A model generated the notes under the pieces. The model saw only the letters and a list, made by a program, of their open reading frames with translations, searched no databases and had not been told where the DNA came from. This document shows positions 1-10,331 of a DNA stretch of 29,961 nucleotides, piece after piece (position 1 is the stretch's first letter; every line of letters begins with the position of its first letter). The position numbers and the translations under genes were made by a program. Location: UHGV virus genome UHGV-0134758; one strand, written 5' to 3'. The stretch is from a virus.

Positions 1-518
1 CACACACCGGCCTGCCAGCCAACAGTACCGATATTGCACCGCCAGATATTCCGGCTGGCTTCGTGGCTGTTTTTAACAGTGATGAGGCATCGTGGCATCT
101 TGTTGAAGACCATCGGGGTAAAACCGTCTATGACGTGGTTTCCGGCGACGCGTTATTTATTTCTGAACTTGGTCCGCTACCAGAGAATGTCACCTGGTTG
201 TCGCCAGCAGGGGAGTATCAGAGATGGGACGGCGTATCCTGGGTGAAGGATGAGGAAGCAGAAAAACTGTTTCGAATACGGGAAGCGGAAGAGAAAAAGG
301 CAAGGTTGATTCAGGAGGCAACAGATAACATCGCAATTCTGCAGGATGCAGTTAATCTTGAAATAGCAACAAACGAGGAAATTTCACAACTGAATTCCTG
401 GAGAAAATACAGAGTATTAGTGAGTCGAATTGACACCAGTACAGCTCCGGATATCGTATGGCCAGAGCTGATGAATCAGGGTTATGTGCGGGAGGACGAG
501 CAGATAATTTCAGACTGA
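1..518 (+). CDS. tail fibre assembly protein (Tfa / U family), 5'-truncated by window edge
   Basis: Reading frame is open from nt 3 ([20 protein letters not shown] precedes the listed 63..518 ORF, whose first codon is an internal GTG). C-terminal ...[18 protein letters not shown] resembles Mu U / e14 Tfa-type fibre chaperones (from memory). Confidence 0.8.
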
Positions 519-1045
519 AATTTAGTGATGAATGTTGAATCATCTGGAATATCATGCAATACCAATGCATGAGCACCTATTGTGACATTGTTTCCTATAC
601 GCACTTTGCCACCAAGAATGGTGGCATTACAACCAATGGTCACATTATGTCCTATAACAATATCCATATCATTAAATTCCCCGCGAAGTCCAATAGTTAC
701 TCCGGGCTTTATTGAACAATTTTCACCGATTGTGACTTTGTGACCGATGACAACGCCATTGAGATAAGATATGTCGAATCCTTTCCCTATATTTACAGTT
801 AAGGGAACGGTTACATTGTACTTGTCAAGAATGAAGCGTTCCATTTTTCCTGCAACCTTTCGCCTATATCCGCCTTTATCAAAAAGATATTTCGATATGC
901 GCCACCAAAATAAATAACGAACTCTTCTATGTTTTATTGCGCGAACAATTGCTTTTCGCCAGGAGAAAGGACGCTCGCTACCAATTACTTCATAGTGAAT
1001 ACAGTCTTTAAGTTCATTAATGGTCATATTTCTATTGTTCAGCAT
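482..1045 (-). CDS. hexapeptide-repeat (left-handed beta-helix) acetyl/acyltransferase
   Basis: Tandem hexapeptide repeats [16 protein letters not shown]...[34 protein letters not shown]. Visibly AT-rich. Its 3' end overlaps the 3' end of the convergent tfa gene by 37 nt. No clear Shine-Dalgarno before the first ATG. Confidence 0.75.
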
Positions 1046-1466
1046 AATATAATCATGTGACCAATTATTATAATAATTTTAATGAATTATTTCTACTGAT
1101 TATCCAGTGTGTCTGGTGGTTTTCGGTATTATCTGCCGGAACCATGCCTCATCCAGCGAGTATTTGCTGCCGGGGTTATCCGGTTTTACGGTCACACCCT
1201 CGAGCCTCCGATTCTGGTCACGGCGGGTTTGTTATTTCCCGGTGCGTCGGATGACCACTGCCGTAACTTCTGCACCATTTTTGGGGGGGGCGGGATTCCA
1301 CTCCCACGCAACCTGCGCTTTTTGTGCAGCCTGTTTTGCTGCGCTGTCCCGGATTTTTGAGTTTCATTCTGCCCTCCCCCGATCCTATCAGGGACGACAC
1401 CCATCCACTTAAGCACGATGCCAAGACCATCAAGGAGCAGCGTCAGCGGTCCCAGCACAATGTTCT

Positions 1467-1510
1467 GCTTGACATCCTCCACGCCCTAAAGGACGTGGAG
1501 GATGTCAAGC
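1467..1510. repeat. perfect 17-bp inverted repeat (gcttgacatcctccacg / cgtggaggatgtcaagc) with 10-nt spacer
   Basis: Seen directly in sequence, anchored on the 1324..1563 ORF frame. The spacer ends also pair (cct/agg), giving a near-continuous 44-bp palindrome about 65 nt upstream of the holin-like start. Confidence 0.85.
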
Positions 1511-1573
1511 AACATGACCGGTTGAGAAGTTACTTTGCATACCATTACCTCCTGACAACGTAGGAGGGAACTT

Positions 1574-1903
1574 GTGCTTGACACACAGGAATTAGCTCCA
1601 GTTGCTATTGCGCTCCTGCTTTCAGTAATTGGTGGGATAGGCACGTTCCTGATGGATGTCCGAGACGGTCGCCAGTCTGGCAATTTGTTGGGATTGGTTA
1701 CGGAGATCTTTGTTGCAGTGACAGCTGGCGCGGTGGCGTACCTATTGGGGCAACACGAGGGCTGGGAGTTATCAATTACGTACTTAATGGTAACGATAGC
1801 CAGCAATAACGGTCATGAGGTGATTTCAGGGATGAAACGAGTGAATATCGATAGCATTCTGAATGTTCTTACAAGTTTGGTGAAAAAGGGAGGCGGGAAA
1901 TGA
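1574..1903 (+). CDS. holin-like small membrane protein (position of P1 lydA)
   Basis: 109 aa with 2-3 hydrophobic helices (LAPVAIALLLSVIGGIGTFL, LLGLVTEIFVAVTAGAVAYLL) and a charged C-terminal tail KKGGGK. GTG start 5 nt after AGGAGGG. First gene of an operon of overlapping ORFs. Confidence 0.7.
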   Translation: MLDTQELAPVAIALLLSVIGGIGTFLMDVRDGRQSGNLLGLVTEIFVAVTAGAVAYLLGQHEGWELSITYLMVTIASNNGHEVISGMKRVNIDSILNVLTSLVKKGGGK

Positions 1904-4853: not shown

Positions 4854-5215
4854 CACTATCAGCTATTGAGTTAATGGATCTCAGCGATAAGTTGGATGCT
4901 CTGATGTCCAAAGCGGCTACCGCGAGTGGCATGGAGTTGCTGGATATCAGCGATGAAATTGACCAGATCATGCAACAGATGGGGTACGGCGCGTCCGGCG
5001 GCAGTAGTGGCGAGGAAAAACAACCTTCGGTACATGATGGTGTGCCAAAACTGGTTGCTGATTTCCTGGCTGATAAATTCGTCGATCAGAGCACAGATGC
5101 ATTTATCGGTACTTTGCAGGACTTGAGTCAATATGTTGGCACATACATCGACCTGGACCAGGTTAAACAGCACACGGCGGCATGGATAGCCGCCAACATT
5201 AAAGAGGCAGCATAA
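4850..5215 (+). CDS. small acidic protein (position of P1 ddrA)
   Basis: ATGA overlap with the darA stop, indicating translational coupling; 121 aa. Positional assignment only. Confidence 0.55.
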   Translation: MTLSAIELMDLSDKLDALMSKAATASGMELLDISDEIDQIMQQMGYGASGGSSGEEKQPSVHDGVPKLVADFLADKFVDQSTDAFIGTLQDLSQYVGTYIDLDQVKQHTAAWIAANIKEAA

Positions 5216-5227
5216 GGCGTAACAGGG

Positions 5228-8221
5228 ATGAGCTTAAGCGATCAGGTGGTAATGGCCACCAGCATAGAAACGCTGATCGAGCTGCTAAAGAACCTGCCCG
5301 ATTATGGGCGGGTTTCGTATGTGGTGACAGCGAAGGGAGACGAGGTAAAAACGGCGTTTGATATCGTCGATGCCTCAGCTCTTTTGGTATCCAATACTCT
5401 GGATGGGAAAATTAATCCTGACTATCCCCAGGAACTTCAGCCGCGCGACCGGACCCGCGCATCCAGCCTTCTTCAGGTTAACCAGATATCCAAAGATTTG
5501 CGGCCTGCTCAGCTTACTGACTCCGGTTTATCCAGCCATGGCGCGCCGATAATTGGTGAGGACAATGCCGTTGAGTCAGGTAATGGGCGGACCATGGGGA
5601 TCATTAAAGCCTATCAGGACGGTAATGCGGATCGGTATCGGGAGTACCTGATTGAACATGCGACCGAATTCGGCATACGGCCTGAAAGGGTTGAATCAAT
5701 GACGGCTCCGGTACTGGTGCGCCGCCGGTTAACGAAGGTTGACCGTGTTCAGTTTGCCAAGGACTCAAATATTTCTGATCTCCAGGAAATGGCAGCCAGT
5801 GAAAAGGCTTTTGTTGATGCCGACAGCATAACTCCGGCGATGATGGCGCTGTTTAACCCGTCAGAAAGCGGAGATCTGCTTAGCCGCAGTAATGACGCGT
5901 TTATTCGCGGATTCATGACGCAAGTTGGTGCCACACAGGCGGCTGGACTTGTAACTGAAGATGGGCGACCAACACGGCAACTTGTTGACCGGATACAAAA
6001 CGCGATCTTTGCCAAGGCATATATGGATGCGCGCCTGGTAAGGATGGTTGCAGAAGAACCTGATCCGGATATGCGTAATGTTCTGACGGCGCTTAATGCG
6101 GCGGCCAATGATTTTGTCCAGATGCAGGCTTTATCAGGAGAAGCGCACAAGCAGGCTGTGACAACCATCGTTGATGGCATTGAAACAGCGGATAGCCTCG
6201 ATAAAAAGGCGCTGGCGGCATTGAAAGATGCGGTAGACCTGGTAAGGCAATCGAAGGAGTCAGGCCAACATATTACCGATGTTATTGCTCAGGGGGATAT
6301 GTTCAGCGAAACAGCCCCGGAAGTGAAAGCTCTCGCGTTGTTCATCGTCGCGAATAACCGTAGCGCGAAGCGTATGGCCACCGCCTTTAAATTGATGGCT
6401 CAACGTATCAATGATGAGTTACAGCACCAGGGCCAGGCGCTGGGGGATATGTTTGGCGGTGGCGATGTGTCGTTACAGGATATCCTTCGCCAGGTGTCTC
6501 AGGAACTGGAAAACGAAGGCATTCAAGGGATATCCGGCGGTCTTTTCGAGTCCGTTTCCGGCGGTAGTTACAACGGTGTTGCTCCATATACCAGTTTGCT
6601 ATTACATCGGGCATCCGGCATCAAAGACATTATTCATCTGATCAGGCTGCTTTCCCGCACAGATCCCCAGGATGAACAGCTTGTACAAGTGCTTGCGCAT
6701 TTTGTTCGAATGCCTGTTGCCGACGTGAAAAAATGGTGCCGATTATTCGGTATCAGCAATTCGTTACTTCGCGGCTTGTTAAATCACGCATCCTCCCTTG
6801 GGCGCGATGGCTTTGACGAGATAGCGCAGGCGATAAAAAACGGAGATATGCCACCAGCTATTGACTGGTTTTCCATTCGCCCAACCAGGGTGAAAGCATT
6901 CCTTAGCGCGGCGCATTCGGCATCACCATTGGCAGAAATGGTTCAGAGGTTGTCGCTCATATTCACAGACCATAGCGCGTTGGGTGATCTGACTCTGGAC
7001 GAGATGAAAGAAGCCTCCATTCAGTGGGCCGATCAACAAAATGAGGTTAACTCAGACTTCTTGCCAGCATTCAGGAAGGCCGTTAGTAAAGTGGATGATG
7101 CCCGTGGAATTCTGAAAGCATTTAAGGCATTGCAAAGTCGGGTTAATAAACATGTCGGTGATATCGATGGGGTAACGGCGGAAGGCAGGGATATCCTAAA
7201 AGAGCACGGCATAACGCCAGAGTTTATTGATGAGATCAGGACTGATATGCAGCGTGAGGTAGTATCGTCCCTGCAAATCGTAGCCAGAGCGTTGGCGGAT
7301 GCTAATCCGAAGAGTGCGGCCATTGTTAACCGGGTTATTGGTGATATTGAAGCATCGGAGGGCATGGGGGCGCTGAAACTTTTCCTTTCGCGAGCGTTTA
7401 ATCCTAACGGCAATATTCTCCCTGGTATTATTGGTGAGGCTAAAAAGTATGCCAGCGAAGAAGAACTTGAGCATCTTGACCAACTACTTAAGCGATTCTC
7501 ATATAACCCGCAGACACGCTGGCAAATGAATCAGCAAAGTATGGGTTCGGTCCACGAGAAAGTGTTATCTGCCATGAACAGTGCGATCGCCAACTCATCC
7601 GTATCTGAAGAAAAAGCTCTTGAGTGGGCCGACTCTTTTATCACGGAAGAAGTGGAAGAAGCCCGCGCTGGACAGAATGGTGGGATAGACCTGCGCAAGG
7701 AACTTGCTGATATTTATCGCCTGACCGGCGGTAAAATTTCGACCTTATCAAAGGTGGTTCACCACCAGGGAAGGGCATATGCAAATCTAAATGGTGTTGT
7801 TGCTGTCAATTTGAACGATGAAAATGCAAGTGCACTGTGGCACGAGCTGGGTCATCATCTTGAGTACAGTAACCCTGGTTTGTTAGAGAAAGCTAAAGTT
7901 TTTCTTAAGAAAAATATGATTGGAGATAAGCCAGCATTTATAAATACTGGTCAAAAGGGGAAAAAAGAGTGGGTTTTAACTTCATGTCTTAGTGATAGTT
8001 ATATGGGAAGAGTATACCCTGATTTTTCGGTAACACGTTCTGGAAAAATAAACTTCAAAACACCCACTATATCAAAAGCGAGAGCAACGGAAGTCTTCTC
8101 TATGGCGCTTCAGTTATATCATGATAAGGAAGCGTTGGCTGCATCGCTTATGAATGGTGACGGATTGGTCGAATTGTTGTTGGGCGTATCTCAGGAGTTA
8201 AACATTGAAAATTCACGTTGA
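5228..8221 (+). CDS. large dar-operon protein (position of P1 ddrB)
   Basis: 997-aa uninterrupted ORF with start 12 nt after the preceding stop. No catalytic motif recognised by eye. Confidence 0.7.
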   Translation: MSLSDQVVMATSIETLIELLKNLPDYGRVSYVVTAKGDEVKTAFDIVDASALLVSNTLDGKINPDYPQELQPRDRTRASSLLQVNQISKDLRPAQLTDSGLSSHGAPIIGEDNAVESGNGRTMGIIKAYQDGNADRYREYLIEHATEFGIRPERVESMTAPVLVRRRLTKVDRVQFAKDSNISDLQEMAASEKAFVDADSITPAMMALFNPSESGDLLSRSNDAFIRGFMTQVGATQAAGLVTEDGRPTRQLVDRIQNAIFAKAYMDARLVRMVAEEPDPDMRNVLTALNAAANDFVQMQALSGEAHKQAVTTIVDGIETADSLDKKALAALKDAVDLVRQSKESGQHITDVIAQGDMFSETAPEVKALALFIVANNRSAKRMATAFKLMAQRINDELQHQGQALGDMFGGGDVSLQDILRQVSQELENEGIQGISGGLFESVSGGSYNGVAPYTSLLLHRASGIKDIIHLIRLLSRTDPQDEQLVQVLAHFVRMPVADVKKWCRLFGISNSLLRGLLNHASSLGRDGFDEIAQAIKNGDMPPAIDWFSIRPTRVKAFLSAAHSASPLAEMVQRLSLIFTDHSALGDLTLDEMKEASIQWADQQNEVNSDFLPAFRKAVSKVDDARGILKAFKALQSRVNKHVGDIDGVTAEGRDILKEHGITPEFIDEIRTDMQREVVSSLQIVARALADANPKSAAIVNRVIGDIEASEGMGALKLFLSRAFNPNGNILPGIIGEAKKYASEEELEHLDQLLKRFSYNPQTRWQMNQQSMGSVHEKVLSAMNSAIANSSVSEEKALEWADSFITEEVEEARAGQNGGIDLRKELADIYRLTGGKISTLSKVVHHQGRAYANLNGVVAVNLNDENASALWHELGHHLEYSNPGLLEKAKVFLKKNMIGDKPAFINTGQKGKKEWVLTSCLSDSYMGRVYPDFSVTRSGKINFKTPTISKARATEVFSMALQLYHDKEALAASLMNGDGLVELLLGVSQELNIENSR

Positions 8222-8759
8222 AGTTCCGCCATGTCATGCGGCCATTGTTGAATACGTTGATGATGCGCCGCTGAAAATTATTTCTGGCGACATCACAGAA
8301 GACATGATAGCGAATGCTATAAATCGGGTAATTCCTGATGAAAGCCTAAAAATAGTTAATACGCTTGATGCACCTGGTGTGCATGTGCTTCTGACATTAC
8401 AGCAGGTTTGTGGATGGAACATATACTGGCCTGGTTGGGATGATGAAGAAGATCTTATTGTCAGAATTAATATTGCCACCCCATTTGGGGAAACAGCGCT
8501 TGTTGAGTATGGCGACGACGAACCGCTAAAAATTATTTCCGGTGATATTACCGAAATCATGATTGAAGAAGCGATCGCTGGTGCAAGTCCTGGAGGTTAT
8601 TTAGGGTTGGTTAACACCCTTGATGCATCTGGCGTAGAGATTCTTCGAACACTGAATTATTTTGCTGGCTGGTTTGTTGATTGGCCTGTGGTTGAGGGTG
8701 GCGATGAAGATGACGACGACGATGATTTGGATATCCATATTGCTCCGTACGTAAATTGA
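8205..8759 (+). CDS. hypothetical acidic protein with internal tandem duplication
   Basis: Two copies of an approx. 55-aa module (AAIVEYVDDAPLKIISGDITEDMIANAI... and TALVEYGDDEPLKIISGDITEIMIEEAI...), then a poly-Asp tail (DEDDDDDD). Start overlaps the preceding ORF by 17 nt. Confidence 0.55.
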   Translation: MKIHVEVPPCHAAIVEYVDDAPLKIISGDITEDMIANAINRVIPDESLKIVNTLDAPGVHVLLTLQQVCGWNIYWPGWDDEEDLIVRINIATPFGETALVEYGDDEPLKIISGDITEIMIEEAIAGASPGGYLGLVNTLDASGVEILRTLNYFAGWFVDWPVVEGGDEDDDDDDLDIHIAPYVN

Positions 8760-8764
8760 ACAAA

Positions 8765-8788
8765 CCCCGCCGATTGGCGGGGTTTGTT
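8765..8788 (+). terminator. rho-independent terminator
   Basis: ccccgcc-gatt-ggcgggg stem-loop followed by tttgtt, 6 nt after the stop at 8759. Confidence 0.7.
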
Positions 8789-9090
8789 CCTAGCGTGCCG
8801 TAAAATACTACCCTTCAGGTTTAATTGACATGGTGTTTTCAATGTTATGCTATAGATTCATTTTGCTTGCTAATTTATATCAAAATTTATTGAACCAATT
8901 GTTGAGTACATTTTAAATCAGCAACTCTTAAATTTTGCTAATTAATTAGTCAGCTATCTATCGCTGTGGTTGATATTAATGTGCTGGTGTAACGTGTTTT
9001 TATATTGTGCTGTTGTCTCTGGTTGCGATTTGGTCTTAGTGTTATTTCTTGCTCTGTTTATTAATCAATTGGTTTACAGTGATGTTTTTT

Positions 9091-9218: not shown

Positions 9219-10331
9219 ATGAAAAAAATTACAGTGGCACTTTCTACGGTTGCAGCATCTGTTCTGATGGCAATGTCTGCACAAGCGGCAGAAATCTATA
9301 ACAAAGACGGTAACAAACTGGATCTGTACGGCAAAGTTAATGCAGAGCATTACTTCTCTTCTTCAGCTAGTAATGACGGAGATAAAACTTATGCTCGTAT
9401 GGGTTTCAAAGGTGAAACTCAGATTAATGACCAGTTAACCGGTTTTGGTCAGTGGGAGTACGAATTTAAAGGTAACCGTACTGAAACTGAAGGTTCTGAT
9501 AAAGATAAAACTCGTCTTGCGTTTGCAGGACTTCGCTTTGGCGATTATGGTTCGCTCGACTATGGTCGCAACTACGGTGTAGCTTATGATGTTGGCGCTT
9601 GGACTGACGTTCTGCCTGAGTTTGGTGGAGATACCTGGACTCAGACTGATGTATTTATGACCCAGCGTGCTACTGGCGTGGCGACCTATCGTAACAATGA
9701 TTTCTTCGGCCTGGTTGATGGTCTGAACTTTGCTTTGCAGTATCAAGGTAAAAATGATAGTGCTTCAAAAGTGAACAACCCGAAAGGCCGCGAAGCAGTT
9801 GAATCTAATGGTGATGGTTTTGGCCTGTCAGCTACTTACGATTATGAAGGATTTGGCGTTGCTGCAACCTATGCAAAATCTGACCGTACTGATGGGCAGG
9901 TATCCTATGCTAAAAACAGTCATCTGAATGCCTCTGGTAAAACTGCTGAAGTATGGGCTACGGGCCTGAAATATGATGCAAACAACATTTATCTGGCTGC
10001 CACTTATTCTGAAACTCAGAATATGACAGTCTTCGGTGATGATCATATTGCAAACAAAGCGAAAAACTTTGAAGCTGTTGCTCAATACCAGTTCGACTTC
10101 GGCTTGCGTCCGTCCATTGCTTACCTGCACTCTCGCGGTGAAAATATTGGTGCGTTCGGTAATCAGGATCTGGTTGAATACATCGAGGTAGGCACGACCT
10201 ATTACTTCAACAAAAATATGTCCGCTTTCGTTGACTACAAGATCAACCTGATTGATGAAAGTGAATTTACCAAAGCATCTGAGGTTGCAACCGACAACAT
10301 CGTTGCTGTTGGTATGACCTACCAATTCTAA
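9219..10331 (+). CDS. general porin of the OmpC/OmpF/PhoE family (Lc/NmpC-like phage-borne porin)
   Basis: Signal peptide [23 protein letters not shown] then mature [17 protein letters not shown]; conserved blocks GFGQWEYEF and LQYQGKN; C-terminal ...VGMTYQF with terminal Phe. Strongly resembles prophage porins Lc/NmpC from memory. Confidence 0.9.

Follow-up and report, generated by a model that had tools for sequence, protein, structure and literature searches.

We analysed the left end (positions 1-1045) of UHGV virus genome UHGV-0134758, a stretch of DNA 29,961 bases long that we refer to as the window, where a tail-fibre assembly gene, tfa, runs into an opposite-strand gene encoding a serine acetyltransferase-like (SAT-like) protein. 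Judged by alignment, the source of the window is a P1-like phage-plasmid: from ~1507-1514 rightward it is 98.9% identical to phage P1, through lydA, lydB, hdf, darA and onward. Between tfa and the late promoter LPdar, all sequence is foreign to P1. The locus holds the following features (nt, nucleotides; aa, amino acids).

3..1115, no strand: in-window part of a fibre cassette (tfa, the SAT-like gene and its promoter-like site), delimited by homology to other elements
1..518, + strand: 3' part of tfa (171 codons) in frame 3, running off the left end of the window; stop at 516-518
471..518, + strand: extension of tfa, 15 codons plus stop, from a junction alignment with a sister allele
482..518, both strands: overlap of the convergent 3' ends, 37 nt, from the coordinates of the open reading frames (ORFs)
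482..1027, - strand: SAT-like gene (hexapeptide-repeat, left-handed beta-helix), 181 aa; the maximal ORF, to 1045, has 187 aa
1067..1095, - strand: sigma-70 promoter-like site, TAGAAA-17-TATAAT, 10/12 matches, upstream of the SAT-like gene and inside the cassette
1100..1480, - strand: tape-measure relic, an internal piece (~74% nt identity) of a P2-like tail tape-measure gene with its reading frame broken
1466..1511, no strand: near-perfect palindrome, 22 nt, 95% complementary, at the right edge of the replaced segment
1514..1573, + strand: start of the P1 backbone, containing LPdar, from alignment and P1 annotation
1574..1903, + strand: lydA holin gene (PF16083, 98.9% identity to P1), first gene of the conserved lydA-lydB-hdf-darA operon

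The tfa product matches Caudo_TAP (Pfam PF02413, E 1.6e-39) and PHROG 105 (3e-77), and the product of the opposite-strand gene matches Hexapep (PF00132, 6.6e-13). An earlier interpretation made from the letters alone (hereafter the sequence-only reading) had described a tail-fibre chaperone gene converging on a hexapeptide-repeat gene, and both matches bear this out. The window starts 100 nt into tfa, which in full encodes 205 aa in NZ_CP033848.1, a record that is 99.7% identical to the window over 1-1600 and that shows the part beyond the left window edge. Bases 3-298 of tfa are 89% identical to lambda tfa, and the C-terminal part of Tfa is 46% identical to P1 U.

A fixed fibre cassette replaces the invertible host-range switch

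In P1, the homologous slot is annotated as R - S(Sc+Sv) - U - [U' - Sv'] - cixL - cin - lydC - LPdar - lydA, in line with the statement in the sequence-only reading that this end of the fibre operon holds the invertible C-segment and cin. Searching the whole window by tblastn with P1 Cin, LydC, U, U', S and R, we found no match to Cin, and a search with cixL recovered no cix site in the window at up to 3 mismatches; together these searches rule out an overlooked invertase near the fibre end. A second fibre/chaperone set is present neither in the window nor in NZ_CP033848.1, and lydC, P1's second holin-like gene, located upstream of LPdar, is absent here and from both acetyltransferase-carrying arrangements described below. 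The 460 bp separating the SAT-like gene from lydA contain no intact gene, so that the absence of a serine recombinase or second fibre/chaperone pair ahead of the holin-like gene, remarked on in the sequence-only reading, holds up. Relics of cin, U' or Sv' were sought in 1046-1513 by tblastx against P1, which matched the LPdar region only. The locus does not, then, have the make-up of a Cin/Gin/Pin-type invertible host-range segment, with its serine invertase, inverted cix sites and alternative fibre/chaperone set.

Might the switch simply lie beyond the edge of the window? In NZ_CP033848.1 the order is R - S (968 aa) - macro-domain gene - tfa (205 aa) - acetyltransferase-like gene - lydA, with no invertase annotated. 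Because this record has the same order without an invertase, the replacement is real and not a truncation at the window edge, and cin with cix sites beside an unchanged C-segment, which the sequence-only reading had considered for the DNA just outside the window, does not appear there. We conclude that the variable part of S, U, U', Sv', the cix sites, cin and lydC have been replaced by a fixed fibre cassette. The cassette occupies the same slot as the P1 C-segment, from the constant part of S to the LPdar/lydA operon, and plays the same role of host-range module; it differs in having no recombinase, cix sites, second fibre set or lydC, and in carrying a fixed tip of the T4 gp37 / lambda Stf type.

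The cassette is a unit made up of the last ~650 nt of S, tfa, the SAT-like gene and ~90 nt upstream of the latter. It recurs at ~91-92% nt identity in 47-kb phage-plasmids (e.g. pECO-b75), in other P1-like plasmids and in chromosomal prophages; homology to the pECO-b75 cassette stops at window position 1115, just past the promoter-like site. The fibre tip, as seen in NZ_CP033848.1, is a close homologue of the T4 gp37 tip (PDB 2XGF, 9.4e-84) that differs from it in the central receptor-recognition segment. Going by these homologies, fibre tip, tfa and SAT-like gene are a single mobile cassette. Next to it lies the tape-measure relic, which contains a G8 run at 1285-1292. The fragment marks the donor phage of the cassette, and homology identifies that donor as a P2-like myovirus or phage-plasmid.

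On its right side, the P1 backbone resumes at the same nucleotide in P1, in vB_EcoM-Ro157c2YLVW (hereafter Ro157c2YLVW) and in the window type, immediately upstream of LPdar; LPdar itself, placed at 1527-1545 by homology, is identical in all three. From these alignments, the edge at 1514 is the common right boundary of the variable region. GC content over 1116-1513 is 56%. The palindrome close to the boundary is found in the window's cassette type and is absent from P1 and Ro157c2YLVW. It was considered as an intrinsic terminator and rejected, having no T-run and not being called by the terminator scan; a microRNA match in Rfam is spurious and reflects the hairpin only. In most plasmids with the cassette (a ~94%-identical group), relic and palindrome are separated by an additional GC-rich segment of 481 bp (e.g. 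NZ_CP122941.1, stretch coordinates 8465-8945), which the window lacks.

At the other end of the SAT-like gene, the 37-nt overlap with tfa invites a regulatory explanation, which we reject. In a sister allele (91% protein identity) Tfa terminates at ...WPEL* and the genes do not overlap. In the window, a 2-nt deletion removes this ancestral tfa stop and adds 15 codons, and it is because the overlap was created in this way that we regard it as incidental. The identical overlap is present in NZ_CP122941.1 and pECO-b75 and missing from the sister, yong2, phiNP and Ro157c2YLVW alleles. The length given in the sequence-only reading was thus exact (482-518), while the feature is not conserved and has no evident significance. 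We also note a sub-threshold match to the Rfam family IS009 (RF02111) inside tfa (244-442, + strand; 78 bits, gathering score 117, E 1.8e-17), for which homology to the region that gave rise to this candidate small RNA is the most likely explanation. Rfam gave no match besides these two, and an RNA element was rejected.

The SAT-like gene has the appearance of a moron and is under purifying selection

The SAT-like gene has a GC content of 38.6% (32% at third codon positions) compared with 48% for tfa and 50% for the P1 backbone, a measurement that agrees with its earlier description as AT-rich. Its start is most likely the ATG at 1027, which is the start in homologues and in the annotation of near-identical plasmids by the Prokaryotic Genome Annotation Pipeline (PGAP); the 187-aa protein reported previously is the maximal ORF, and a product of 181 aa is likelier. 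As expected of a moron, the gene deviates in base composition and is oriented against the flanking late genes. The promoter-like site upstream of it is one of 5 such consensus matches found, where 3.0 +/- 1.9 are expected, and the terminator scan called no terminator-like site between tfa and the SAT-like gene. With its AT-rich sequence, its position on the opposite strand and a promoter-like site of its own, the gene looks like a moron.

Among three alleles, the ratio of nonsynonymous to synonymous substitution rates (dN/dS) is 0.07-0.09. Purifying selection this strong (dN/dS about 0.08) implies that the protein is functional rather than decaying. Phase variation in the style of NeuO (see below) was considered and discarded: the gene has no repeat tract, its only tandem repeat being a 2-copy 10-mer.

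A CysE/WcaB-type beta-helix protein without the serine acetyltransferase residues

Over its full length the protein matches PHROG 2154 (E 7.9e-78; residues 5-186 on profile positions 2-184 of 185), a phage family of unknown function. Its architecture, a short N-terminal helical domain followed by a beta-helix, appears SAT-like, and the best matches by sequence in PDB are all to CysE. The same is true by fold, keeping in mind that the AlphaFold model (mean predicted local distance difference test, pLDDT, 71.6) is confident in the N-terminal helices only: the 40 best of 109 Foldseek matches are all SATs (CysE), at TMq 0.47-0.69 and E ~1e-3, with the beta-helix part modelled at pLDDT 50-65.

Should we then take the PGAP name at face value and suppose that the gene encodes a true serine O-acetyltransferase, boosting cysteine synthesis or O-acetylserine signalling in the lysogen? 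We regard this as highly improbable. The protein scores 74.3 bits against the CysE model TIGR01172, where the cut-off is 210.65, and 49 against 397 for PRK11132; no SATase_N domain is detected, CysE's long N-terminal domain is missing, and at 181 aa the protein is well short of the about 273 aa of CysE. Furthermore, the residues that we take to be catalytic in CysE (Asp143-His158, E. coli numbering) and to bind substrate (Arg192-His193) align to Thr73, Tyr88, Met and Asp, so that the serine-binding RH motif is missing. What is conserved are all Gly and Ile positions of the beta-helix, along with those coils at the C-terminus to which acetyl-CoA binds in CysE. Alignment thus indicates that the protein is a CysE/WcaB-type left-handed beta-helix homologue and not a true serine acetyltransferase.

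The company kept by its relatives points in the same direction. In the protein database, the matches begin with a tight enterobacterial clade, behind which come proteins of ~187 aa from Flavobacteria and other bacteria. The nearest non-phage relatives (32-33% identity in the alignment, 36-43% over best BLAST segments) are flanked by glycosyltransferase, NeuB or flippase genes in 3/3 loci inspected, and not by cys operons, which supports a polysaccharide-modifying ancestry for the SAT-like protein. The link to glycans also draws on the closest curated families, namely EpsC, CysE and WcaB. The sequence-only reading had asked whether the protein belonged with polysaccharide acetyltransferases or with CysE-type enzymes, and these neighbourhoods, together with the score far below TIGR01172, favour the former as to ancestry. 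Note that the likeness to CysE, WcaB and EpsC, which lies in the N-terminal helical domain, the beta-helix and the best family and structure matches, has its limits: the protein lacks the catalytic dyad and the serine-binding residues and is phage-borne, its gene sitting between tfa and lydA where WcaB- and EpsC-type genes are located in a polysaccharide cluster.

A xenobiotic or antibiotic acetyltransferase of the Vat/CatB kind, or a component of anti-phage defence, deserves no more credence than a genuine serine acetyltransferase. The last coils of the helix do match Vat and CatB models, at 20-27 bits. The cut-offs, however, are 10 to 20 times higher than these scores, which involve generic hexapeptide coils only, in a protein whose overall architecture appears SAT-like; and a defence function was discarded after PADLOC returned no match.

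Relationship to other fibre-linked cargo genes

The arrangement as such has been seen before: dozens of records annotate it, and another allele has been discussed for phage JL22, where 'sacF' and tfa replace U and part of S and both the function of the former ('still unknown') and the reason for its being there are given as unknown (PMC9603915). JL22 and Ro157c2YLVW share with the window the overall architecture and the right boundary, and their fibre tip and tfa are related to ours at 80-85% nt identity. Their SAT-like protein is only 37% identical to that of the window and keeps a Glu-His dyad; in addition, they have a U' remnant before lydA where the window has the tape-measure relic, and a 43-nt gap where the window has the overlap.

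The same convergent order is found in Citrobacter rodentium phage phiNP, as ORF4 (sat) - ORF5 (tfa) - ORF6 (receptor-binding protein), with a tip of the gp37/Stf type that is about 76% identical to the tip of the window's cassette at the nt level. The receptor-binding protein of phiNP has been shown experimentally to bind GlcII of the outer core of lipopolysaccharide (LPS) (PMC9659904). The SAT of phiNP is 39% identical to the window's protein and has an Asp-His dyad; the phage, unlike the window's source, is integrated (45 kb), and its ORF4 is listed merely as 'fitness' cargo.

Two further systems bear comparison, the first of them as a positional precedent. In a P2-like prophage of strain CFT073, the AT-rich acyltransferase gene neaT directly follows the tail-fibre gene G in opposite orientation, in a slot recognised as a moron position, and alters surface behaviour and fitness (PMC3573123). 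It resembles our gene in being an AT-rich, laterally acquired acyltransferase gene in the same slot, oriented against the tail genes. The proteins themselves differ, NeaT being a membrane Acyl_transf_3 protein (PF01757) unrelated in sequence and fold to the window's soluble beta-helix protein. NeuO of prophage CUS-3, a polysialic-acid O-acetyltransferase, is reported to act on a surface polysaccharide from within the cytoplasm and to influence resistance to phages and to the immune system. Like our protein, it is a phage-borne soluble hexapeptide-repeat protein, and it is encoded near a tailspike gene. It belongs to another beta-helix subfamily and is phase-variable via 5' heptanucleotide repeats, of which the window gene has none; NeuO is not among the PDB sequence matches at E <= 0.01, nor among the 50 best of the 109 fold matches.

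A minority state of P1-like plasmids

How common is the arrangement? Defining P1-like plasmids in PLSDB by the presence of lydA-lydB-hdf (n=471), we find the lydA-side slot occupied as follows.

P1-type cin-lydC-lydA: 143 plasmids
window type: 37 plasmids
second type (Ro157c2YLVW/JL22), protein 37% identical: 33 plasmids

A SAT-like gene thus occupies the lydA-side slot in about 15% of P1-like plasmids (37 + 33 of 471), showing the patchy presence within a phage group that is characteristic of morons. The sequence-only reading had conceded that it would fall if homologues at this position were core genes in most P1-like phages; with about 70 carriers in 471, they are not. The gene is neither part of the P1 core nor unique; it recurs as a minority state in a region whose hypervariability has been described before.

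Linkage to tfa extends beyond P1-like elements. Among 80 loci from IMG/VR, where we counted lineages as independent below 70% identity (n=20), a convergent tfa lies within 150 nt downstream in 39/40 loci of the window allele and in 9/20 independent lineages. The same convergent order is seen in pECO-b75 (95% identity), Hafnia phage yong2 (52%), Citrobacter phiNP (39%) and Ro157c2YLVW/JL22 (37%).

Proposed lysogenic conversion and its alternatives

Taking these observations together, we favour the reading that the SAT-like gene is a lysogen-expressed moron that modifies an envelope glycan, that is, a gene for lysogenic conversion. This is tentative, and we would put its probability at roughly 0.45. 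The sequence-only reading, which had suggested conversion of a surface polysaccharide, is partly supported. Its expression in the lysogen would start from a promoter of its own and run opposite to the late fibre operon, and the cytoplasmic product would act on a precursor of an envelope glycan, be it LPS core, O-antigen, capsule or some similar sugar. The ensuing surface change, most plausibly in the structure contacted by gp37-type fibres, could result in exclusion or in some other surface-linked benefit to phage or host, and the gene might persist beside tfa because fibre-tip cassettes exchange as units. If so, it would be an uncharacterised addition, with an unusual active site, to the known class of phage-borne surface-modifying cargo genes.

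One may go further and imagine that fibre tip, Tfa and SAT-like gene travel among P1-, P2- and lambda-like phages as a three-part cassette for 'receptor-binding plus receptor-editing'. The lysogen's protein would then edit the very LPS or envelope sugar that its linked fibre recognises, here via a non-canonical Thr-Tyr site, and, possibly along with an OmpC-like porin encoded elsewhere on the phage-plasmid, render the lysogen invisible to its own phage type. We consider this a speculative and rather doubtful extension.

A number of observations weigh against the lysogenic-conversion reading. Substrate, masking and exclusion are all drawn from sequence and context; the promoter of the SAT-like gene is a consensus match only; and every NCBIfam cut-off is missed, including those of the best-scoring families, EpsC (83 bits against a cut-off of 150), CysE and WcaB (62 against 196 and 59 against 195). 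Moreover, the plasmids concerned are carried by many E. coli serotypes, and a cytoplasmic enzyme would need a substrate that all of these share. Two further sets of observations, concerning genomic location and the active site, count against it as well and lend themselves to explanations of their own.

Regarding location, homologues are also found beside int in P2-like phages. On the chromosome of BIT-l23 (Enterobacteriaceae bacterium, stretch 6001-7697) an island without phage genes nearby holds three tandem paralogues, all with a D/E-His dyad, and a ~35%-identical 'serine acetyltransferase' is present on an IncK2/Z plasmid (stretch 3165-3752) and on many IncI-type plasmids, where it is frequent as an accessory gene, flanked by the yacAB toxin-antitoxin pair on one side and a ProQ/FinO gene on the other. 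Linkage to fibre genes is therefore not obligatory, and since the family is common on IncK/IncI-type conjugative plasmids, it is general cargo of mobile elements. In addition, the divergence of SAT and that of Tfa are weakly correlated (Spearman 0.30, from non-independent pairs), with adjacent Tfa proteins as little as 25% identical to each other. The association with tfa is real, and a moron hot-spot on recombining fibre cassettes fits it equally well as functional coupling does.

These patterns would be expected if the protein were an active glycan acetyltransferase carried as general fitness or virulence cargo, with effects on behaviour in serum, towards phagocytes or in biofilms as for neaT and neuO, unrelated to fibre specificity and located where it is because the site after tfa, like that after P2 G, tolerates insertions and moves along with fibre cassettes as they recombine. 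We think this rather unlikely: the same slot and orientation in 9/20 lineages is far above what random placement in a ~50-gene phage would produce, with the proviso that the bias introduced by an insertion hot-spot is not quantifiable from these data.

Regarding the active site, the dyad His, the general base of CysE-type enzymes, is present in 99/99 homologues outside the subclade to which the window's protein belongs, but is replaced by Tyr in 14/14 subclade members (>=53% identity). The partner residue co-varies, being Thr, Lys or Val in the subclade and Asp or Glu in 78/99 of the others. In IMG/VR, Thr-Tyr is found in 41/41 sequences of the window's cluster (40 loci plus the window), with all other phage lineages having D/E-His. 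Because the subclade lacks an otherwise invariant catalytic His, even acetyltransferase activity is uncertain: as far as alignment can tell, the chemistry of the Thr-Tyr allele is uncertain and ordinary O-acetyl transfer cannot be assumed. The protein might no longer be an O-acetyltransferase at all, but a pseudoenzyme that binds acyl-CoA or a sugar nucleotide, or an enzyme catalysing another reaction, N-acyl transfer that needs no base being one example; it is through this activity that any effect on the host would then arise. Some N-acetyltransferases with a left-handed beta-helix, QdtC and WlbB among them, do work without a catalytic base, and the low dN/dS shows that the variant is functional, whatever it does. 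On the other hand, the acetyl-CoA-binding coils and the beta-helix positions named above are conserved, Tyr itself could serve in catalysis, and the helix part of the model is too low in confidence (pLDDT 50-65) to show the geometry of the active site. On balance, we see an altered or non-catalytic function as possible if unlikely.

Whichever explanation applies, the locus has practical relevance. Resistance genes in E. coli and Salmonella are commonly carried by P1-like phage-plasmids, whose host range is determined by the fibre locus. For predictions of the strains open to infection by them, it is important that in about 1 in 7 P1-like plasmids a fixed T4-type tip has taken the place of the two-fibre switch. 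Hundreds of records give the companion gene the wrong label, "serine acetyltransferase", and PHROG 2154 recurs beside tfa in many unrelated temperate phages. Should the lysogenic-conversion reading be true and the protein edit LPS or another envelope sugar, it would constitute a widespread factor for lysogenic conversion or exclusion that has gone unrecognised, and it would matter for serotyping, for phage therapy and for the engineering of fibres. The change from His to Tyr in the active site, for its part, poses a concrete and testable biochemical question.

Neighbouring genes

Just left of window position 1, NZ_CP033848.1 carries a macro-domain gene (stretch coordinates 5119-6021; 300 aa; PF01661 at 1e-19; PHROG 2613; weak DarG-like match). 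The insertion falls exactly between the S stop and the tfa start; pECO-b75 and NZ_CP122941.1 lack it, their cassette being identical in other respects. The inserted gene may represent an anti-ADP-ribosylation (anti-defence) gene inside the late fibre operon.

Further to the right, at 9219-10331 (+ strand), the window encodes a porin of the OmpC/OmpK36 family (370 aa; PF00267 at 5.4e-148), diverged from E. coli OmpC, in the position of P1's isaB-IS1-isaA. Both OmpC and LPS are used by fibres of the gp37 type, and in phage PA-2 exclusion is the role of a phage-borne porin; by analogy, a link of the phage-plasmid porin to host range or exclusion is conceivable. A related 'ompC' is found on about 110 P1-like plasmids (best identity 95.5%), including, among the matches listed, at least 14 of the 37 plasmids with the window's fibre cassette.

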